Shown piece after piece: positions 4,775-41,874 of a DNA stretch of 64,000 nt. The position numbers and the translations under genes were made by a program. The stretch covers positions 134,256 to 198,255 of the forward strand of contig VMER01000001.1 in assembly GCA_007375645.1 (NCBI GenBank), in the 5' to 3' direction. Position 1 is the stretch's first letter. Each line of letters starts with the position of its first letter. The stretch comes from Parcubacteria group bacterium LiPW_15 (lineage in GTDB: Bacteria; Patescibacteriota; Minisyncoccia; UBA6257; 2-01-FULL-56-20). Below the pieces are notes generated by a model. That model was not told the origin of the DNA and made no database searches. It saw nothing but the letters and a program-made list of their open reading frames with translations.

Positions 4775-6067
4775 ATGACAGATCTTTTAAAAAAGACCTT
4801 TTCCGTAATTTCGACCCTCATAATTATTATGGGGCCGTCTAATTCTTTGGGCGCAACAACCGCGCCGCAGACGCGGGAAGAATTGGAACAGCAGATAAAA
4901 GACAGGTCCAAACAGCTGGAGACCTTGAATCAGGCTATCCAGACCACTCAAAATACCCTGAAAGACGTTCAGGGCCAGAAAACCACGCTTCAAAAGGAAG
5001 TTAAAACCCTAGATACCTCGCTCAAACAATTGGATTTGAGCATTCAATCCGACCGGGTAAACGCGCAAAAAATAAATTACCAGATCGATTCCATCGACAT
5101 GGATATCGAGGATATCGAGGCTTCCGTGCTGCAAAAAAACAGTTCTATTTCGGATCTTTTCCGCGAGCTTCAGAGGAATCAGGATAAAAATACGCTGATG
5201 ATATTTTTGGAAAACAAGACTATCAGCGAAGGTCTTTTGGCAACAAAATCTTTGGAGGATATACGTTCTCAGCTCGCGGTGGATATCCAATCGCTTAAGG
5301 AGTTGAAGGATCAATATCGGCAAAAAATGGAAGATCTTAGCGTCAAACACAAAGAGCTGGTCTATCATGAAGAAAATTTGAAGAATCGCAAACAAATAAC
5401 CGAAGAAACGAAGCAGGAAAGAGCCACGCTTTTGAGCCAGACCAAAGAGAAAGAAAGTGTTTATCAAAAACAGTTGGCCGATCTGAAAAAACTTCAGGAA
5501 GATATCGCGAATGAAATGGAGGCGATGGACGCCCAGCTCCGAAGCAAAGTTGATCCGAAGTTCTTGCCGCCGCTAAGTTCAGGAGTGCTGGGCTATCCCA
5601 TTCAGGGAGATAAAAGCGATATGACTCAGAGCTATGGAGCAACGGCCTTCGCAAAATATGGATATAAGGGTAAGTGGCATAACGGTATAGATTTCGGCGT
5701 ACCCATTGGAACTCCGATATTTGCCGCGGAGACAGGAATCATTCTTGCGACCGGGAATCAGGACTCATTCTGCTACAAAGGCGCATATGGAAAATTTGTT
5801 TTGATAAAGCACGAAAATAATTTAACGAGCCTTTACGGCCATCTTTCCAAATACATAGTTTCGCCCGGACAGAAAGTTGAGCGGGGACAGGTCATCGGTT
5901 ATTCCGGAAAAACCGGTTACGCGACCGGACCGCATTTACATTTCTCGGTTTTTGCCACGCCGACTATTCCGCCTGCCACCGGCAAATATCCGGAAGGAAT
6001 CAGCCCCTCCAAAAGCTGCGGCCCGATGCCATACGGCGGCGACTTGAATCCGTTGGGTTATCTCTAA
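4775..6067 (+). CDS. M23-family metallopeptidase with N-terminal signal peptide and long coiled-coil (EnvC-like murein hydrolase)
   Basis: C-terminal LytM/M23 motifs HxxxD and HLHF, with an N-terminal coiled coil. An alternative upstream start at 4739 is possible. Confidence 0.8.
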   Translation: MTDLLKKTFSVISTLIIIMGPSNSLGATTAPQTREELEQQIKDRSKQLETLNQAIQTTQNTLKDVQGQKTTLQKEVKTLDTSLKQLDLSIQSDRVNAQKINYQIDSIDMDIEDIEASVLQKNSSISDLFRELQRNQDKNTLMIFLENKTISEGLLATKSLEDIRSQLAVDIQSLKELKDQYRQKMEDLSVKHKELVYHEENLKNRKQITEETKQERATLLSQTKEKESVYQKQLADLKKLQEDIANEMEAMDAQLRSKVDPKFLPPLSSGVLGYPIQGDKSDMTQSYGATAFAKYGYKGKWHNGIDFGVPIGTPIFAAETGIILATGNQDSFCYKGAYGKFVLIKHENNLTSLYGHLSKYIVSPGQKVERGQVIGYSGKTGYATGPHLHFSVFATPTIPPATGKYPEGISPSKSCGPMPYGGDLNPLGYL

Positions 6068-6960: not shown

Positions 6961-8310
6961 TTGAATCTCGTGGCCAAGCAACATATTCATTTTGTCGGCA
7001 TCGGCGGTATTGGGATGAGCGCGCTAGCCCGTTATTACTTGGCTCAAAATTGGGCTGTTTTCGGGTCCGACGTGGAAAAAAGCATAATTACCTCGGATCT
7101 TATAAAAGACGGCATATCGGTCAAAATCGGGCAGAAAAAGGAGAACATATCCCCTATCTTTGACCGTATCATCAAGAGTCAGGCGGTACAGGAGACCAAC
7201 CCGGAGATCTTAGAGGCAAGGAGGCTTGGACTTAAAGTTTTTTCTTATCCGGAGGCTGTCGGCGAGCTGACTAAAGATATTAAAACGATTGCCATTGCCG
7301 GCGCGCACGGCAAAAGCACGACTACGGCGATGATCGCCAAAATTTTGGTTGATGCCAAATTGGACCCAATGGTCATTTTGGGAGCGAAGTTTGATTTTTT
7401 TGACGGAAGAAACTTTCGCCTTGGAAAGAATTATTTGGTTTTGGAAGCGGACGAGTTCGGCCGGGCATTTTTGAATTATTACCCCACGCACACGGTTATT
7501 TTGAATATCGACAGAGAGCATTTGGATATTTATAGCGGCCTTAAGGACATTAAAGACACCTTTCTGCGTTTCATCTCTCAAACCAAACCGGGCGGTATTC
7601 TTATTTTGAACCGGGACGACAAAAATATTTTCTCGCTTAAAAATAAAATAGAAAAAATAGCCCTAAAAAATAAACTCAAAATTATCTGGTTCTCTTACTC
7701 CGACAAAATTCAGGCGGAAATATTCGGCGCGCTCCCTATTCCCGGGCGGCAGAACCGAACGGATGCGATCGCCGCTTATAATCTGGCATTGAGCCTTAAG
7801 GTGTCCAAAAAGAAGATATTAGAGTCCCTCTCCGGATATCCCGGCCTCTGGCGGCGAATGGAGCATAAAGGACCGGCTTTCGACGGTCGAGCGACGGTTT
7901 TCGACGATTATGCCCATCATCCTTCGGAAATTAAAGCCACCCTTTCCGCGTTCCGTGAAAAATACCCCGACTCCCCTATCCTTTGTGTTTTTAAACCGCA
8001 CCAGGCGAGCCGCCTTAAAATTTTGTTTAGGGATTTCTTAAATTCATTTTCCGCGGCCGATAAAATAATTATTCTCCCAACTTATATTGTTTTGGGCCGG
8101 GACATAGACGAGAAGGTTTTAACTGCGAAAAAATTGGCTGAAGACTTAGCCAAAAAATATCCGACGAAAAAGATCGTGTATCTTTCCGACTCCGATAAGC
8201 TTAAATCAACCCTGTATTCTCTTTTGTCTGCCGCGAATCCAAAGCCATCAGTTATCATTATGATGGGCGCTGGTTCGATAGCGAATCTTACAAAAAGCAT
8301 TTTGAACTGA
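6961..8310 (+). CDS. murC: UDP-N-acetylmuramate--L-alanine ligase MurC
   Basis: N-terminal IHFVGIGGIGMS motif and Mur ligase central and C-terminal domains. The start is TTG at 6961 or GTG at 6970, and no clear Shine-Dalgarno precedes it. Confidence 0.9.
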   Translation: MNLVAKQHIHFVGIGGIGMSALARYYLAQNWAVFGSDVEKSIITSDLIKDGISVKIGQKKENISPIFDRIIKSQAVQETNPEILEARRLGLKVFSYPEAVGELTKDIKTIAIAGAHGKSTTTAMIAKILVDAKLDPMVILGAKFDFFDGRNFRLGKNYLVLEADEFGRAFLNYYPTHTVILNIDREHLDIYSGLKDIKDTFLRFISQTKPGGILILNRDDKNIFSLKNKIEKIALKNKLKIIWFSYSDKIQAEIFGALPIPGRQNRTDAIAAYNLALSLKVSKKKILESLSGYPGLWRRMEHKGPAFDGRATVFDDYAHHPSEIKATLSAFREKYPDSPILCVFKPHQASRLKILFRDFLNSFSAADKIIILPTYIVLGRDIDEKVLTAKKLAEDLAKKYPTKKIVYLSDSDKLKSTLYSLLSAANPKPSVIIMMGAGSIANLTKSILN

Positions 8311-16898: not shown

Positions 16899-17300
16899 AT
16901 GGAAGATAAAAAAGGAATGAAAGAGTGCTGTGATAATTGCGGTACATGCGAGAACGGCGCTTGCTCCGTTTCGGGTCACGGGCATATGGGCATGTGCAGT
17001 TACGGAGGCTGGCATGGGAGGTGTGGAATGGGCCACTGGGTCCTGCGCGCTATTGTCGGCATCGTAATACTAACTTTCGTATTCTGGGCCGGTATTAAGC
17101 TCGGCGAGCTCAGATCTATGCTTTACAACTCGGACTTCGGTTATGGAATGATGGGCGGAAAATCCGCTGTCTCCAACATGATGCGAAACAAATTTTTCTA
17201 TAACGTGGATCCTTATGACCAGAGCTGGATGATGGGCGGCTACCCCTCCAATCTGGAAACCAAAGCGACTCCGTCTGGGACTGCTATTCCCGCAAAGTAG
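16899..17300 (+). CDS. Hypothetical Cys/Gly/Met-rich membrane protein
   Basis: 133 aa with an N-terminal Cys cluster (CCDNCGTCENGAC) and one TM helix. Confidence 0.45.
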   Translation: MEDKKGMKECCDNCGTCENGACSVSGHGHMGMCSYGGWHGRCGMGHWVLRAIVGIVILTFVFWAGIKLGELRSMLYNSDFGYGMMGGKSAVSNMMRNKFFYNVDPYDQSWMMGGYPSNLETKATPSGTAIPAK

Positions 17301-17310
17301 TGTGCTATCA

Positions 17311-17344
17311 AAAACCCGGATAGTCTATGGACTATCCGGGTTTT
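17311..17344. terminator. Bidirectional palindromic terminator
   Basis: Palindrome CCCGGATAGTC-TATG-GACTATCCGGG flanked by an A-run and a T-run. A related copy lies at 34590-34625. Confidence 0.6.
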
Positions 17345-17346
17345 AG

Positions 17347-17592
17347 TTAGGGGCGGTTGTGGCGCATATTATCCAGGGCCCAGGTGTATTCGATGATGAG
17401 AATCGGAATCCATTGAGGCTCTTCATGGATAATGAACATATATATTCCAAAAAGGCCGGCCAGGGTGTTTATGATAAAGAAGGCTACGTCGAAATGCTGT
17501 TCATGGCGAGACTTACTTTCGTTATTCGTGATGTATAAAAACCATTTCCAAAGCATACATAAATTATACCGTTCAATTGATTTTTGAGCCAA
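17347..17592 (-). CDS. Small hypothetical membrane protein
   Basis: 81-aa ORF with two predicted TM helices. The start is uncertain. Confidence 0.3.
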   Translation of the reverse strand: MAQKSIERYNLCMLWKWFLYITNNESKSRHEQHFDVAFFIINTLAGLFGIYMFIIHEEPQWIPILIIEYTWALDNMRHNRP

Positions 17593-17648
17593 TTTTGGGG
17601 ATAATGAACCAGTTGATGGATATTGAGGTTAGGTTGAATTTTGTATAT

Positions 17649-17719
17649 TGCGGGGTCGTCTAACGGTAGGACATCGGCCTTTGAAGCCGAGTATTTTGGT
17701 TCGAGCCCAAACCCCGCAG
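17649..17719 (+). tRNA. tRNA-Gln (anticodon UUG)
   Basis: Hand-folded cloverleaf. Acceptor UGCGGGG/CCCCGCA with U1-A72, D stem GUCU/GGAC, anticodon stem UCGGC/GCCGA with loop CUUUGAA, T stem UUUGG/CCAAA with loop TTCGAGC. CCA is not encoded. Confidence 0.75.
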
Positions 17720-17837
17720 CAAGCGAGCAAAGGCGAAGCGCAGTGGCCAGGCCAGCAGGCAGTGGCTACAAGTATGACCAACTCATGATAGGTTATCCCG
17801 CTCGAGGAGCGCAAAGGTCGTCATATCAAACATCAAT

Positions 17838-18071
17838 ATGCTTACCGAAGAAGAAAAGAGTTTTTTGACAGGTCAATTCTTAAACCCCACTTTTGGCGAG
17901 GTAAATACGGAGGATCAGGAGAATTCGACGACATTTTCTTTTGCTCCTGCAAATCCTCAAAAAGAAGTTGAATCAATTTCAGAATTTCTTGCAAAATTCC
18001 CTCGTTGGGAACTAACAAAAGAAACTGATTCAGCAGGGAAAAAATTTGTACAGATAACACTAAAGAAATAA
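17838..18071 (+). CDS. Hypothetical protein
   Basis: 77-aa acidic ORF at the island edge. Confidence 0.35.
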   Translation: MLTEEEKSFLTGQFLNPTFGEVNTEDQENSTTFSFAPANPQKEVESISEFLAKFPRWELTKETDSAGKKFVQITLKK

Positions 18072-18255: not shown

Positions 18256-18993
18256 TCAGTAGCTCAATAAGCTTTTCGCTTGTATCTCCTTGATTCCATT
18301 TGGAAGCAGATGGTAAAATCCATCCTTAACTGCAATAAATTTTTCAACCCTCATTGATTCAACGGTTTTATTGAAACGACTTCGATTGTTATCTTTCGTT
18401 TTCGAAAAAAGGAATTCAATATCCCGTTTTTGTTTACTGAGCAATACTAATATCTCTTGCTTTACAAGGAGGTCTTCCCTCGCTATAAATTCTTCGCCCT
18501 CAATTTCAAAAATAACTGGATAATTAGGGACGGCAATTTTATCAATAATAGCTTGGGCTTCATCCATGGAATAATTCCCGTAGACTCGGATTAACTCTGC
18601 CATAATCCAATTAGCGGAGGACAGAACAAAGCTTGCGTCAATTTTATTTGCACTGAATCCACCGAGATGTGCAACATTCCGATTGTTTCTAAAATCGAGG
18701 AGTAGTTTTGTTAAAACAGTAACTTTTTGACGAACATGCTCATCAATGACTGGGTCGTTAGTGACTTTATTAATAATGGTTGTTTTCTCTGCTGCTTTAA
18801 TATCCTGACCAGGCGGAGTGATGGGTATATCAAGCAAATGTTGGAAAATCCTTAAAACTGCCTCGGCAAATCTGCCTCCATTAAGCTGACTTGGCCCGCA
18901 ATCATTCAGCTGAAAGCGACGTTTGATCTCCACATATTCTGCGAAGAGACTGTCCTCAAGATTGTCGGGTATGGTTTTAAGACTTTTCGCCAT
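18256..18993 (-). CDS. Hypothetical protein with HEPN-like Rx6H motif (possible abortive-infection/DUF4145-like)
   Basis: The motif RNNRNVAHLGG fits the HEPN R-x4-6-H pattern. Start chosen at MAKSLKT. Island gene. Confidence 0.4.
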   Translation of the reverse strand: MAKSLKTIPDNLEDSLFAEYVEIKRRFQLNDCGPSQLNGGRFAEAVLRIFQHLLDIPITPPGQDIKAAEKTTIINKVTNDPVIDEHVRQKVTVLTKLLLDFRNNRNVAHLGGFSANKIDASFVLSSANWIMAELIRVYGNYSMDEAQAIIDKIAVPNYPVIFEIEGEEFIAREDLLVKQEILVLLSKQKRDIEFLFSKTKDNNRSRFNKTVESMRVEKFIAVKDGFYHLLPNGIKEIQAKSLLSY

Positions 18994-19411
18994 TCTTTTT
19001 AAGAATATCTTTCCATTGTTTTCCAAGAACATAAAATCCCCGAGTATTTTTTGCTGCATCAGCCCAACCGTTTTCTTTCGCTCTGGTTGAAAAGATCGAG
19101 GCATAGGGTTGCCCGATAATACCCGAACAGCTTTTCCAAATAGTTTTAATCTGCAATAAGTCTATGGGAACAGACTCTTTCCCGCCCGCCAAATACGCCA
19201 GAATAAGAACAAAGAACTCTTGACCATTAAAGCCGGGAGAATACTTTTTAATGAATGCTCGCTGATTCAATGAGAAGTCTAAACCATCGACACTCAGGTC
19301 TTTTATAGGTTCATTCTTTTTCCCAAAAACCGTTGCCTCAAGCCTTTCGATTCTCTCTTTGATTTCTGCGATTTCTTTTTCCATTTTGATTATTTGAAGA
19401 TTTCTTTCCAA
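18977..19411 (-). CDS. Hypothetical coiled-coil protein, paralog A
   Basis: 144 aa. Shares the pattern coiled-coil ... DFS.NQRAF.KK ... F.L..AY ... W...L with 19390-19821 and 19823-20233. Confidence 0.5.
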   Translation of the reverse strand: MERNLQIIKMEKEIAEIKERIERLEATVFGKKNEPIKDLSVDGLDFSLNQRAFIKKYSPGFNGQEFFVLILAYLAGGKESVPIDLLQIKTIWKSCSGIIGQPYASIFSTRAKENGWADAAKNTRGFYVLGKQWKDILKKNGEKS

Positions 19412-19821
19412 TTCGGCCTAAGGGAGTAAAGTGAATTTTTCGGAGACACGATCCAATCATTTTCCCTAGAGCGTACCGCAAATGTAGGTGAAAACTTCGG
19501 CTTGATTATGCTTTTCATCTTCGACCACTCTCCCTGTATGTCGGTCAGCGATGCCTCTTCGGTGCCCTTTTTATTAACGAAGTAAGCAACCATAAGGGTA
19601 AAAGTCTTTGGACCAGACATATCCTTCGCGTGCTTTTTGAAGAATGCTCTCGCTTGCATAGAAAAATCTATGTCCGAATCGACTGCGAGGCGAGCTGGAT
19701 TTTTAACGATCGCTGCTTCATTTTTATCATCTTCCGGCATAGACTCATTAAGAACCCGTAAGCATTTTTCGGCTGCATCCTTTATTAGTCGTAGTTGTCT
19801 TTCTAGTTCAGTTTTATTCAT
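19390..19821 (-). CDS. Hypothetical coiled-coil protein, paralog B
   Basis: 143 aa with clear similarity to paralog A. Confidence 0.5.
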   Translation of the reverse strand: MNKTELERQLRLIKDAAEKCLRVLNESMPEDDKNEAAIVKNPARLAVDSDIDFSMQARAFFKKHAKDMSGPKTFTLMVAYFVNKKGTEEASLTDIQGEWSKMKSIIKPKFSPTFAVRSRENDWIVSPKNSLYSLRPNWKEIFK

Positions 19822-19822
19822 T

Positions 19823-20233
19823 TTAATTTTTATTTAATTGGTCGATAAAACCTTCGCCCGAATCAGTGAGGTGCCAGGCCTTTTTCATCTCCTTTTTATC
19901 TTCTGCCTCCACCAAATATCCCTTATCAATGTTCTTGTTGATTTTGTCATTCAGGTTTGACGGGATAACCTCCTTTGCTAGTTTATACACCTTGGTTAAA
20001 TCATCGATATTGAACGGACTCGTTCCTAGCTTGTGCTCGATAAAATAACAAAGAACAAGTGTTTTTTGAACTTCGCCCGATGGTTTTTTTTCGATGAGAA
20101 ACTCTTTAGGAGAAATCTGTCTTTGAATGGATGTCGAAGCAGCTTTGTGAGGCGCGCCCAACAGCTTTTTTTCTAACGCCAGAAGTCGTTCCTCGTGATC
20201 TGCCAGCTTCCTTTCTATTGAAGTGTTATCCAT
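19823..20233 (-). CDS. Hypothetical coiled-coil protein, paralog C (more divergent)
   Basis: 136 aa with the same architecture: an N-terminal coiled coil followed by a KTLVLCYFIEHKLG segment. Confidence 0.45.
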   Translation of the reverse strand: MDNTSIERKLADHEERLLALEKKLLGAPHKAASTSIQRQISPKEFLIEKKPSGEVQKTLVLCYFIEHKLGTSPFNIDDLTKVYKLAKEVIPSNLNDKINKNIDKGYLVEAEDKKEMKKAWHLTDSGEGFIDQLNKN

Positions 20234-20242
20234 GATTTTGAT

Positions 20243-20647
20243 TTATTGTTTTTTTGAGTTTTTCTCGACGACCTCTTTGATTCGATAATTTGGCACGTAA
20301 TAACCCAATTCTTTGTTTTTTTTTATTTTTTTGGCATCAAACAGTTTTTTTAGTGTGCTCTTTACACTTCCCTCAGGAATGACACCCAAGTTCACAATCT
20401 GACCTTGATTCAGGCCATCGGGCGTACCGTCTTCCAATAAGGAAAGTGCCTTGGAAGCCAAGAGTATGATTTCCACTTTCTCTATATTATTATCCACTTT
20501 TTCAAACGCGGGCAGGAAACCGATTTGTTTCGATGCTCGATCAAAAACGACATACGGCTTAAGGAAGGTAGCGACGATTTGGCGATCTATCGACTTGATA
20601 TCATCTGCAAAAAGGTCGGCGAGTGGATCTTTTGGTTTTTGGTTCAT
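20243..20647 (-). CDS. Hypothetical protein
   Basis: 134-aa ORF, first gene of the minus-strand island cluster. Confidence 0.4.
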   Translation of the reverse strand: MNQKPKDPLADLFADDIKSIDRQIVATFLKPYVVFDRASKQIGFLPAFEKVDNNIEKVEIILLASKALSLLEDGTPDGLNQGQIVNLGVIPEGSVKSTLKKLFDAKKIKKNKELGYYVPNYRIKEVVEKNSKKQ

Positions 20648-20707
20648 GTTTTTACTATTTTTATAATTCTACCGCTATCGACTACAGAGTCAAGTGTATA
20701 GCGAATG

Positions 20708-20798
20708 TGAACTCGCTGTCAAATCCCAAAGAATCGCCAATGGACATTCGCCTCAAATATAATTTCATCGGCTGAGTAGCGCCCAAATCTAAAAGAGG
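20708..20798. repeat. 91-bp direct repeat, copy 1
   Basis: Identical base-for-base to 21088-21178. Confidence 0.9.
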
Positions 20799-21087
20799 CC
20801 ACTACCCTTAGTATCCCATAGTATATCTAATTATCCTATTAAGCACATCGGAGGGGAAGACTGATTGTGGGAGTGAGTAAAATTACCAAAAGATCAATAA
20901 AATACGGCCTTTTTCAGAAAGGAGCAAGGGATTGATTTTGGTTCAGTTACGCTAGATGGTTGATGAATTTATGATAATTACCTCGATTATCACGTTAATA
21001 CTGTGTTTTGACCATATAAATAAAGGGTTATCCCATTTAATGGATAGGATTAAATACTATAAATACAACAATACTCCAATATTCTTT

Positions 21088-21178
21088 TGAACTCGCTGTC
21101 AAATCCCAAAGAATCGCCAATGGACATTCGCCTCAAATATAATTTCATCGGCTGAGTAGCGCCCAAATCTAAAAGAGG
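21088..21178. repeat. 91-bp direct repeat, copy 2
   Basis: Identical to 20708-20798. The copies are separated by 289 bp of AT-rich DNA. Confidence 0.9.
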
Positions 21179-21396
21179 GGCGTGTGTTACCTTTGCCACT
21201 ATTTGAGATATGGAAGGGTGCTCGAGATGCGTCGTCAGATCGCCCGGAAAGGCTTCAAAAAATGCCTTACGGGTTTGAACCCAGTCGGTTCTAGCTCGAG
21301 TCCCCCAGCAAAGAATGTTGTGATGTTGAAGACCTTTTCGCCAAAGTAACTAAAAAGAGCGGTTTGATGTTATCGCACCGCTCCGTGGTTCGACGC

Positions 21397-22182
21397 TTAT
21401 AGGCGCCAGGGATTCGGCTTCAGAATCGGAAGTAGTCTTTTCCGAAAATCGAGTGCCAAGATGCTGAAGAAAACGTAACGTTCCGTTTGCTCTAACGACG
21501 CAAGCAGGAATTCCCCGTTCGGAAATGGTGATTCCGGACTCAGTAAGAATCTGCCCTCCTCGGCTTCGCAGGCGATTTTAAACGCCAGGTCTTTTCGGAT
21601 ATCGGCGTCCGTCAGGTCGAGGCCAGAATCTTCTCGAACCCAAGCCGCATGTCTCTCGAAATCAATTTCAAATGCCGAGGGAGAGACAAATTTAGACGTA
21701 TTCGCCTGGACCTCTTTTGCCGCGACGGGACGACCCCCGAGCACTTCTTCTTCCCAATCCAACAGGATGATGCTTCCAGCCGCCGGAGATTTATCAATCT
21801 GAGCCGAGAGCATTGTCTTGTATTGAGCTTCTACATTCGGACAAACTCTGCCGGTATCGATATAGGATCTGTTTAGGGTAATCCACCAATTAACCGTGGC
21901 TCCGTTTCCGGAGAACAGACCTATGATTTTAGGAATGAGCTCTTGAATCAGTTCCAATTCCGTTTTTATTGGTGAAAACTCCCCACCCTGCGCTTTCAGG
22001 CGTTCTTCCAAGTCCTTCGCAACGCACCACTGGGTCAGAATCTGAACCGGTCTGCCATTCAGAATACAGTCGTTAACGTAATCGTCTGCCCACTCGTCTA
22101 TTTTCTTGTTATTTGCTCTAACGAGTTTATTCTGCATTCGCAGGGCAGCCATGATTATCTGAGTCTGTTTCAACCTCATGGT
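21397..22182 (-). CDS. Hypothetical protein
   Basis: 262 aa from the ATG at 22182, which has a GGAAGGAG Shine-Dalgarno. The longer upstream extension would overlap tRNA-His and is rejected. Confidence 0.45.
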   Translation of the reverse strand, partial: TMRLKQTQIIMAALRMQNKLVRANNKKIDEWADDYVNDCILNGRPVQILTQWCVAKDLEERLKAQGGEFSPIKTELELIQELIPKIIGLFSGNGATVNWWITLNRSYIDTGRVCPNVEAQYKTMLSAQIDKSPAAGSIILLDWEEEVLGGRPVAAKEVQANTSKFVSPSAFEIDFERHAAWVREDSGLDLTDADIRKDLAFKIACEAEEGRFLLSPESPFPNGEFLLASLEQTERYVFFSILALDFRKRLLPILKPNPWRL

Positions 22183-22306
22183 TTTTTTCTCCTTCCATTG
22201 TAAAAGTGCTCCTGATCTCCCAAGGAGAACAGACTTAATTTGCACAAATTTATATTTGAGCCGATTAAGCCTGCTCTTCTTTATTTTTCTTTTTTTATAG
22301 CTCATG

Positions 22307-22379
22307 GGTCCTGGACGGGACTTGCACCCGCAACCAATGCCTTCACGGGGCACCGCTCTTCTATTGAGCTACCAGGACC
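22307..22379 (-). tRNA. tRNA-His (anticodon GUG) with encoded G-1
   Basis: Hand-folded. G-1 pairs with discriminator C73. Acceptor GUCCUGG/CCAGGAC, D arm GCTC-AATAGAA-GAGC, anticodon loop CCGUGAA, T arm GCGGG-TGCAAGT-CCCGT. Confidence 0.75.
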
Positions 22380-40419: not shown

Positions 40420-41874
40420 ATGGCAACAAACGAGGTAATCCTTAGATTTAACGGCGTGTCCTTCGAATACGGACCGCAGAAACCGATCCTAATGGAGGCG
40501 GAATTTTCGGTGCGCCGTGGATCGAAGATAACCTTGATGGGCCAGAACGGCTCCGGAAAAAGCACCATATTTAAACTCATAACCGGGGAGATAGAGCCGG
40601 AATCCGGCGCTATCAACATCGGAAATGGCCTTACCATCGCTCTTTCAAAGCAGGTGATCCCCCGCGCCCAGATGGATTCAACCGTTAAAGAATTCTTCGA
40701 ATCCGCTTTTTCAAAAAAGGTGTACGATATCGAACCGCGTATCGCAAAGATCTTGGAAGTAGTTAATCTCGATGCGCCGCTTGATAGACCGCTCAAGACT
40801 TTTTCGGGCGGACAACAGGCGAGACTTCTTTTAGCCCAGGCCCTTATCCAAGGCTCGGATATCTTGCTCCTCGACGAGCCGACCAACAATTTAGATAAAG
40901 ACGGCATCGCCCATCTCACCAAATTTCTTAAGGAATATAAGGAGACTGTTATTGTCATTTCCCACGACGCAGAGTTTTTAAACTCCTTCACCCAGGGCGT
41001 CATCTACCTGGATATCTTTACCAAGAAGACCGAACAATACGCCGGAGACTATCTTTTTTTGGTGGAGGAAATTAAAAACCGTTTGGAGCGGGAAAGAATG
41101 AAAAACGCGCGGCTCGAAAAAGAAATAGCCCATCGCAAGGAACAAGCCAACTTCTTCTCGCAGAAAGGAGGGCATATGCGCGATGTCGCGCGGAAAATGA
41201 ACGAGAATATCGAAAAACTTGAAGGCGAGATGGTAGAAACCAGGCAGGAAGACAAGACTATCAGAAACTTCGCCATTCCCTGCCAGGAGGATCTCGAAAA
41301 CCCCGTGCTTACTTTGAAATCGGTTTCGGTCATAAAAAATCATAAAGCCACGGCAAAGAAAGTTGATATTGTTTTGAAAAAGAAAGAACACCTGCTTTTG
41401 TCGGGCCCGAACGGCATCGGCAAGACCACACTTCTCGAAGCTCTGGCCTCCGGCCACGCCAAGGGCGAACATGTTTCAAAAGACGCCCGCATCGGCTATT
41501 ACCGGCAGGACTTTTCCACTTTGAACTTCGAGGAAACGGTTTATAACACCCTAAAAGAAGTAGCCGGCAAAATGTCCGAAGAAGACCTGCGTTCGCACGC
41601 GGCCGGATTCCTTTTAACCTCGGAAATATTAAAAACAAAAATCGGCTCCCTCTCCGAAGGACAAAAAGGATTGGTTGCCTTCGCGAGGCTGGTTTTGGAA
41701 CGCCCGGGACTCTTGATACTCGACGAGCCGACAAATCATATAAACTTTCGCCATATTCCGATTATTGCCGGCGCCCTGAATCGCTTTGAAGGAGCGATGG
41801 TGCTCGTAAGCCACATTCCGGATTTTGTAGCCAAAATTAAAATAGACAAGACACTTGACATGGGACTGCTTTAG
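40420..41874 (+). CDS. ABC-F family ATPase (tandem ABC domains, no TM domain)
   Basis: Two Walker A motifs (GQNGSGKST and GPNGIGKTT) with an inter-domain linker. Confidence 0.85.
   Translation: MATNEVILRFNGVSFEYGPQKPILMEAEFSVRRGSKITLMGQNGSGKSTIFKLITGEIEPESGAINIGNGLTIALSKQVIPRAQMDSTVKEFFESAFSKKVYDIEPRIAKILEVVNLDAPLDRPLKTFSGGQQARLLLAQALIQGSDILLLDEPTNNLDKDGIAHLTKFLKEYKETVIVISHDAEFLNSFTQGVIYLDIFTKKTEQYAGDYLFLVEEIKNRLERERMKNARLEKEIAHRKEQANFFSQKGGHMRDVARKMNENIEKLEGEMVETRQEDKTIRNFAIPCQEDLENPVLTLKSVSVIKNHKATAKKVDIVLKKKEHLLLSGPNGIGKTTLLEALASGHAKGEHVSKDARIGYYRQDFSTLNFEETVYNTLKEVAGKMSEEDLRSHAAGFLLTSEILKTKIGSLSEGQKGLVAFARLVLERPGLLILDEPTNHINFRHIPIIAGALNRFEGAMVLVSHIPDFVAKIKIDKTLDMGLL

Follow-up and report, generated by a model that had tools for sequence, protein, structure and literature searches.

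A Promoter Fragment Probably Kept in Duplicate by Gene Conversion Upstream of a Portable Cassette with a Probable HEPN RNase Gene in a Parcubacteria Bacterium

In a 64-kb stretch of DNA from Parcubacteria group bacterium LiPW_15, referred to here as the window, a 91-bp sequence occurs twice in the same orientation upstream of a minus-strand operon of five orphan genes. The repeat carries the upstream part of the operon's promoter up to and including its -35 box, and related loci carry pairs of their own in the same place. Taken as a whole, the comparison of sequences suggests an ancient tandem duplication of the promoter's upstream module that has been homogenised by gene conversion, a history that we hold with moderate confidence. 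The structural core of this reading, namely a real and conserved pair that bears a promoter and evolves in concert, can be held with considerably greater confidence.

Extent and Reality of the Repeat Pair

The sequence-only reading had described a perfect 91-bp pair with 289 bp between the copies, and a self-comparison of the window confirmed both the coordinates and the identity. The proximal copy (R-prox, 20708–20798) and the distal copy (R-dist, 21088–21178) are identical at 91 of 91 nt, and their starts are 380 bp apart. Both are read here on the minus strand, which is the strand of the operon. Gene B comes first in the cassette, and 60 nt separate its ATG from the end of R-prox; R-dist lies at the cassette's outer edge. 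The pair is the sole direct repeat of at least 30 nt in the window, barring a 44-mer at 75% identity within a gene, and the longest exact repeat in 20 composition-preserving shuffles measured 14–17 nt, compared with the 91 nt observed. There are no additional copies of the repeat elsewhere in the window. The 44-nt direct repeat (40850–40893 and 41699–41742) falls at both its positions within a long plus-strand ORF (40420–41874) and probably corresponds to the two nucleotide-binding domains of an ABC-type ATPase.

The block that holds the pair (20648–21396) measures 749 bp and is bounded by the start of the minus-strand gene B (20647) and the stop of gene A (21397). It had been described as a non-coding AT-rich block. 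It indeed contains no ORF conserved among relatives, but its AT-richness is confined to the 289-bp spacer: the GC content is 33% in the spacer, 44% in the repeat, 50% in the remainder (21179–21396), and 47% in the window. Short sub-repeats within each copy (AATCGCC and CATTCGCC) are present as had been reported, but they are not conserved in relatives. Single-sequence folds of the repeat on either strand were no better than those of shuffled sequences (z +1.1 to +1.2), and a search of positions 20500–21600 against Rfam, at the gathering score and at E values up to 10, gave no match.

The pair can also be followed in an assembly made separately from the one that yielded the window. An independent k=31 assembly (Logan) of run SRR8863432 contains two contigs, L001 and L002, that break at the repeat's outer edges. 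One of them equals the window from 20737 to 14243 and the other from 22341 to 21149, and both end 30 nt (k-1) inside the repeat. Because the de Bruijn graph breaks 30 nt inside both outer edges, the repeat is genuine in the reads, with the qualification that, for identical copies, an assembly of short reads does not tell a single 380-bp unit from several. Stronger evidence comes from the comparison with related loci below. Exact 22-mer scans of genome and metagenome contig collections returned zero matches to the repeat; the source MAG evidently lies outside both collections.

Recurrence of the Layout in Related Loci

Homologues of gene B that stand in the same gene order (B-C-D-F) were found in more than 25 loci from other assemblies. 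When the 1.6 kb upstream of each homologue was compared with itself, a repeat pair was seen in ten distinct loci, counting the window itself (WIN) together with L005, L016, L006, L009, L018, L020, L022, L026, and L029. Each of the ten has its own repeat of 56–95 nt, with 96–100% identity between the copies and a spacing of 233–489 bp. The proximal copy ends 31–76 nt ahead of the gene B start codon in every paired locus. The repeat measures 95 nt in L005 (copies 97% identical, spacing 379 bp), 91 nt in L016 (99%, 377 bp), 94 nt in L006, which is the same as L008 (99%, 417 bp), 79 nt in L009, which is the same as L019 (99%, 413 bp), 59 nt in L018 (97%, 464 bp), 67 nt in L020 (97%, 466 bp), 56 nt in L022 (98%, 242 bp), 68 nt in L026 (100%, 233 bp), and 74 nt in L029 (96%, 489 bp). 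Since at least ten unrelated genomic sites share the layout, it represents a real regulatory design and not an accident or an assembly error. The artefact that the sequence-only reading had considered is contradicted by independent assemblies of other samples, which show the same layout and in some cases have distinguishable copies, such as those of L005 with their three mismatches. Four Logan contigs from other runs start 25–31 nt inside the proximal copy.

Some relatives depart from this layout. The spacer, called U hereafter, is kept in L017 and L039, where the copies have decayed to 70–78% identity and to about 20 common nt, respectively. L021, a close relative of L006, L009, and L017, has a single copy and lacks U, and where it can be aligned with L006 the similarity begins inside the proximal copy. 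Eleven remoter cassettes have one ordinary promoter and no U. The duplication is thus not essential to the cassette, since both L021 and these remoter cassettes manage with a single promoter and without the spacer. The cassettes L043 and L044, which belong to the family of gene F, have a different first gene; their upstream regions are AT-rich and contain no long repeat pair. No relatives were found in viral contigs.

A Promoter on the Strand of Gene B

The repeats of the three closest groups of loci all end, on the gene-B strand, with GGATTTGACAnnnAGTTC, and this sequence holds the -35 box. In the window, the -35 box TTGACA of the operon promoter (20717–20722, minus strand) lies inside R-prox, and the -10 box TACACT (20693–20698, minus strand) lies in the leader just beyond the repeat. 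The arrangement TTGACA-18 nt-TAnAnT is kept in 13 of 13 loci of groups 1–3, with the repeat boundary falling between the two boxes; the -10 box occurs as TACACT, TAGACT, TATAGT, TATACT, or TATAAT. R-prox and the leader together therefore have the features of a sigma-70-type promoter, that is, TTGACA and TAnnnT 16–19 nt apart at a conserved position. Because this arrangement straddles the boundary, the -35 box and the roughly 75 nt that precede it belong to the repeat, and the -10 box stands just outside. The proximal copy is thus predicted to be active as the promoter of the operon.

Among the candidates of the sequence-only reading, duplicated promoter or small RNA units come closest, in that promoter units are what is found, but the promoter lies on the minus and not on the plus strand. 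The TATAAT box that had been noted in each copy is present on the plus strand. It reads TATAAC in L005 and TACGAC in L016, however, and is not conserved; what the repeat supplies to a promoter is the -35 box and the upstream region.

The leader contains two further elements. A second promoter-like site (TTGACT-16-TAGAAT, 20666–20693, minus strand) is kept only in the closest relatives, L005 and L016. The leader motif CTGTAGTCGATAGC (20674–20687, minus strand) is conserved, and together with the ATTATAA that follows it (GATAGC...ATTATAA) it may be read, in our view, as a degenerate form of the spacer palindrome placed after the proximal -10 box.

The distal copy has its own TTGACA (21097–21102, minus strand), and the hexamer 18 nt past it is TGGAGT (21073–21078, minus strand), a poor -10 box. 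The same hexamer is found at this spacing in L005, and other relatives have TATATA, GATATA, or GAGAAT at 18–19 nt. Because the -10 box at the canonical spacing is poor, the distal copy of the window may not fire. In L022 and L026, the duplicated unit comprises the entire promoter and about 20 nt of the transcript; L029 is an exception, in that its best promoter sits outside the repeat. Whether the distal copy is an active promoter appears from these sequences to be nearly balanced, leaning slightly towards inactivity.

Concerted Evolution of the Two Copies

The copies are much more alike within a locus than between loci. Over the 90 nt that end at the 3' boundary of the repeat, identity within a locus is 96.5–100% in the window, L005, L016, L006, and L009. 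The same copies compared between loci are 73–92% identical, much like the adjacent spacer and leader. Between locus groups the repeat sequence cannot be aligned save for its last 18 nt, and the repeat centre is poorly conserved between lineages. The substitutions themselves are also shared by the copies. In an alignment of six sequences, all six substitutions that separate the window from L005 (6/6) are present in both copies of each locus, and the more than 20 substitutions that separate the window and L005 from L016 are likewise present in both copies.

This pattern, in which copies are closer within than between loci and substitutions are common to both, is that of concerted evolution. Independent evolution of two old copies cannot yield shared substitutions, nor can the pattern have arisen if each of the ten lineages had undergone a single recent duplication at this position. 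Recurrent gene conversion between the close direct repeats would be the economical explanation. Nor is the likeness of the copies due to base-by-base selection, because the repeat centre is poorly conserved between lineages. The sequence-only reading had attributed the perfect identity to recent duplication or gene conversion. The former does not agree with a two-copy layout that is common to cassettes whose gene B proteins are only 47–68% identical; the latter is borne out by copies that are 96–100% alike within a locus despite the divergence between loci.

The Spacer Between the Copies

Spacer U (20799–21087, minus strand) is 289 bp of non-coding DNA with 33% GC. Its size ranges from 165 to 415 bp across the paired loci, and its first 135 nt, which form the 5' half on the gene-B strand, are conserved across cassette groups. 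The heptamer TTATAGT (21056–21062, minus strand) is invariant in all nine aligned loci (9/9). A perfect palindrome, TGATAAT-N7-ATTATCA (20972–20992), resembles an operator, and its half-sites are kept in all aligned loci. It is the sole perfect match to this pattern in the 64 kb, and 0.28 matches would be expected with up to two mismatches allowed. An AT-rich near-palindrome, CCTTTATTTATATGG (21012–21026), reads CTTTATATATAAGG or GCCTTATATATAGGC in relatives. There are no compensatory changes in the palindromes of U among the aligned loci, and no conserved RNA fold of U was found, with a consensus fold of only -1.97 kcal/mol. Because their sequence is conserved without compensation and the fold is negligible, the palindromes look like protein-binding sites in DNA and not like RNA stems. 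It seems plausible from these motifs that the winged-helix proteins of the cassette bind the palindromes in U and the related leader motif, and that U sets the expression of the probable toxin.

No ORF within U is conserved among loci. A 44-aa hydrophobic ORF on the plus strand (20956–21090) was considered as a type I toxin and rejected; it is kept in L005 and absent from L016, L006, L009, and others. A weak hairpin, CCTTTCTGAAAAAGG (20908–20922, minus strand), is followed by a T-rich tail and is a possible terminator of a distal transcript. Its dG is -1.7 in the window (CCTTT/AAAGG) versus -5.5 at the same place in L016 (CCCC...GGGG), and forward-strand terminators in U are weak overall (dG -1 to -5.5).

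Two further observations concern the upstream regions of the relatives. GC-rich hairpins with T-runs on the strand opposite gene B occur in L006 (7819–7838), L017 (about 628–648), and L009 (about 5826–5840). They sit exactly at the junction between the spacer and the proximal repeat, with dG values of -13 to -16 kcal/mol in L006 and L017 and -5.2 in L009, and the window has no GC-rich hairpin at this junction. A perfect DnaA box, TGTGGATAA, is found upstream of gene B in L010 (about 5484–5492), L034 (about 927–935), and L035 (about 476–484). These are distant cassettes without a repeat pair, and U of the window contains no DnaA box.

The Cassette Genes

The five genes downstream of the repeat all lie on the minus strand. 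Gene B (20243–20647) encodes a winged-helix protein of 134 aa. Genes C (19823–20233, 136 aa), D (19390–19821, 143 aa), and E (18977–19384, 135 aa) are paralogues that share an N-terminal coiled coil, which is followed by a probable winged helix. Gene F (18256–18996) encodes 246 aa with a probable HEPN domain and a C-terminal winged helix; the winged-helix fold was found both in gene B and in this C-terminus. D and E are tandem paralogues (18977–19821) with 29% identity in alignment. Since most related cassettes carry a single gene of this kind, the window and L005 have an extra internal gene duplication.

The gene F family comprises more than 190 homologues, all of them unannotated. The N-terminal domain of F is an alpha-helical bundle similar to solved HEPN domains. 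R103 and H110 of F are invariant in 33 sequences, within the stretch RNNRDVAH, in agreement with the Rx4-6H motif of HEPN domains. Gene F is thus a probable RNA-cutting toxin, a putative HEPN RNase fused to a winged helix. Searches of genes B–F and gene A against Pfam, PADLOC, PHROGs, NCBIfam, and PDB sequences gave no significant family. Elsewhere, the neighbours of the cassette include type I and type IIG restriction-modification genes, a LexA-methyltransferase fusion, a Zeta toxin, and tRNA genes. The F-family member in L043, for example, stands beside restriction-modification genes and the Zeta toxin. The association of HEPN domains with restriction-modification and abortive-infection systems is established (PMC3710099). 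With an HEPN-like F and such neighbours, it is plausible by analogy that the cassette is a candidate defence or addiction module.

Genomic Setting and Portability

The orphan genes B, C, D, E, and F form a minus-strand block of low GC content, 39% versus 47% for the window, that ends beside a tRNA-Gln gene (17649–17720, plus strand). The 3' end of this tRNA gene faces the cassette, as it does in L005; in L006 the tRNA is tRNA-Glu. L005 (GCA_040960095.1) matches the window from 21204 to 18147 at 89% nucleotide identity, and the tRNA-Gln region (17649–17811) is also common to both, but the surroundings in L005 are otherwise unrelated to those of the window. In L005 and L016, the homology of the cassette begins about 26–35 nt outside R-dist. 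Across loci, sequence similarity sets in at the distal copy or no more than about 35 nt from it, so this copy marks the outer edge of the portable unit. The cassette ends have neither an integrase nor an att-like flanking repeat of at least 16 nt. The 3' end of tRNA-Gln was tried as an att repeat near 21200–21400 and gave no match.

The GC-richer flank between R-dist and gene A (21179–21396) is common to L005 at 21179–21204 and 21220–21312. In L005, a 116-aa ORF (7077–7427, minus strand) lies beside the distal repeat where the window has a gap from 21204 to 21220. It was rejected as a conserved divergent regulator, being found in L005 alone with no counterpart in the window or the other loci. 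A 55-aa plus-strand ORF in the flank (21182–21349) was likewise discarded as an inverted fragment of a gene D paralogue (BLASTP E=11), and the flank shows no similarity to priA that would mark it as a remnant of that gene. Gene A (21397–22305, minus strand, 302 aa) encodes a conserved Parcubacteria hypothetical protein and starts directly past the 3' end of tRNA-His (22306–22378). In the relatives L003 and L004, gene A is followed by a convergent priA; the window instead has the repeat block and genes B–F, and priA is found nowhere within it.

At a larger scale, the cumulative GC skew of the window peaks at about 17000–18000, where gene orientation shifts from mostly plus to mostly minus. This peak could be a replication terminus, or it could merely reflect the operon layout.

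Proposed Mechanism and Alternative Explanations

The reading that we favour can be put as a sequence of steps. The repeat would be the upstream half of the promoter of the minus-strand operon B–F, beginning about 100 nt before the transcription start and taking in the -35 box. An ancient tandem duplication would have left two copies of this module on either side of the operator-rich and AT-rich U. The proximal copy and the -10 box just outside the repeat would drive the operon. In those relatives, at least, that have a good -10 box, transcription from the distal copy would yield a non-coding RNA that spans U; alternatively, this copy might only offer the DNA-binding proteins of the cassette a second place to dock. 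Recurrent gene conversion would keep the copies alike, and between loci they would diverge at the rate of the neighbouring non-coding DNA.

Two alternatives assign the duplication a more specific role. One holds that U encodes a small RNA that starts from the distal copy and, for example, neutralises or regulates the probable HEPN RNase much as in a type III toxin-antitoxin system; duplication of the promoter would then place RNA and operon under common control. A non-coding stretch with repeats does immediately precede a probable RNase cluster, a hexamer TATATA, GATATA, or GAGAAT follows the distal TTGACA at 18–19 nt in relatives, the complete promoter is duplicated in L022 and L026, and several loci have a hairpin with a T-rich tail about 180–220 nt downstream. 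Nevertheless, this reading appears unlikely: there is neither a conserved secondary structure nor a compensatory change nor an Rfam match at E=10, the terminators are weak, the distal -10 box of the window is poor, and the repeats lie mostly upstream of the predicted transcription starts, unlike transcribed ToxI repeats. The other alternative is a recombination switch, in which RecA or a site-specific enzyme deletes U and one copy and so irreversibly alters the expression of the HEPN cassette. L021 would then be the switched state, since it has exactly one copy, lacks U, and has homology to L006 that starts inside the proximal copy. Direct repeats of 91 bp that start 380 bp apart are inherently prone to deletion, and serine recombinase fragments adjoin the cassette in L006 and L025. 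These are stray Zn-ribbon fragments in two loci only, however, and no recombinase is conserved with the cassette. The layout also persists in L039 (about 20 nt) and L017 (70–78%), where homologous deletion is no longer possible, and one single-copy locus is to be expected from occasional loss anyway, so we consider the switch distinctly unlikely. Elements of both ideas return in the still more speculative proposal that the two repeats and their spacer together control a new HEPN-based module in CPR bacteria, one for abortive infection or of the toxin-antitoxin kind. Here either an RNA from U would restrain the RNase, or the copies would act as a recombination "fuse", in which RecA-driven deletion of the spacer under phage attack or DNA damage would free the toxin operon from repression. 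Such a module, in either version, is in our estimation a long shot.

The sequence-only reading had listed attL/attR-like junctions and an iteron origin as candidates, and the corresponding alternative is that the copies are att junctions of a small inserted element, or the iteron origin or centromere of an integrated plasmid-like element. In its favour, an AT-rich segment is enclosed by identical direct repeats, the portable cassette adjoins tRNA genes, and perfect DnaA boxes stand upstream of gene B in the three distant loci L010, L034, and L035. Against the att junctions, homologous U sequences occur in nine loci, in every case with the repeat on one side and gene B on the other. U is therefore no insertion but belongs to the cassette, and the distance from repeat to gene B is fixed. 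The cassette contains no integrase or other recombinase, no Rep, and no ParA (a Rep-family search of genes B–F gave no match), and its ends carry no tRNA-derived sequence or att-like repeat of at least 16 nt. An origin finds no positive support either, with just two "iterons" whose sequence is not conserved between relatives, no Rep gene, no DnaA box in U of the window, and no relative in viral contigs. This whole group of explanations is therefore very improbable. Least credible of all is an assembly artefact or a neutral recent local duplication without function. The copies are perfectly identical and the MAG was built from short reads, yet the layout occurs in at least ten loci from different samples and assemblers, with three mismatches in L005 and strong divergence in L017 and L039, and the pattern of shared substitutions demands a long coexistence of both copies.

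Significance and Comparison with Known Systems

The regulatory DNA of Candidate Phyla Radiation (CPR) bacteria, which here are tiny groundwater bacteria, is almost unstudied, and this locus yields a promoter defined by comparison, TTGACA-18-TAnAnT. It also provides a clear case of small-scale concerted evolution in non-coding DNA, in which a promoter fragment of 60–95 bp is homogenised in at least ten lineages. The unannotated portable cassette around a probable HEPN RNase, often near restriction-modification genes, is a candidate for a new defence or addiction module. If U is the control element of the cassette, the repeat pair could serve as a compact marker for such cassettes in metagenomes.

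Tandem promoters ahead of one operon are familiar from rrn P1/P2 and gal P1/P2 in E. coli, where the known pairs are different sequences. The present locus resembles them in having two modules in the same orientation before an operon, of which the distal one adds a long untranslated leader. It differs in that 56–95 bp including the -35 box are duplicated identically, with 165–415 bp of operator-rich DNA in between and with gene conversion. Paired operators with DNA looping are known from lac O1/O2, gal OE/OI, and deo. They also consist of two related sites a few hundred bp apart, and the putative coiled-coil DNA binders of the cassette could by analogy bridge the copies; the repeats here, however, greatly exceed an operator in length and differ in sequence from one relative to the next.

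In the type III toxin-antitoxin loci ToxIN, CptIN, and TenpIN, ToxI-type repeats of about 36 nt are arranged in tandem and transcribed. Both there and here, non-coding direct repeats stand immediately upstream of a probable RNase toxin gene in a context of mobility or defence. In the window, however, 380 bp lie between the starts of the two copies, most of whose length precedes the predicted start, and F is HEPN-like and not ToxN-like. No tandem array, no pseudoknot or conserved fold, and no Rfam match was found at this locus. The attL/attR sites of tRNA-targeting integrative islands also come to mind, given that the direct repeats are identical and that the low-GC block is portable and next to a tRNA gene. 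What the repeats enclose, however, is not the island but an internal spacer of 289 bp; they bear no relation to the tRNA, and an integrase is lacking. Iteron origins have several repeats of about 17–22 bp that are conserved as binding sites of an initiator protein, unlike the two copies of 56–95 bp seen here, which are only 73–80% conserved even between close relatives.

Concerted evolution by gene conversion is known in bacterial rrn operons (PMC8022953), which likewise combine high identity within a genome with divergence between genomes. The rrn operons are a multi-kb gene family, whereas a non-coding promoter fragment of 60–95 bp occurs here twice within 0.5 kb. The cassette itself is similar to the HEPN toxins linked to restriction-modification and abortive infection (PMC3710099), in that F is HEPN-like with an Rx6H motif and the cassette is often found beside restriction-modification genes. 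Unlike the known HEPN systems, it consists of four or five genes, three or four of which encode small winged-helix proteins, and this arrangement matches no model in Pfam, NCBIfam, PHROG, or PADLOC. Two copies of a promoter fragment that conversion probably preserves in many lineages, ahead of a hitherto undescribed HEPN/winged-helix cassette in CPR bacteria, are a variant of what is known and not a new category.
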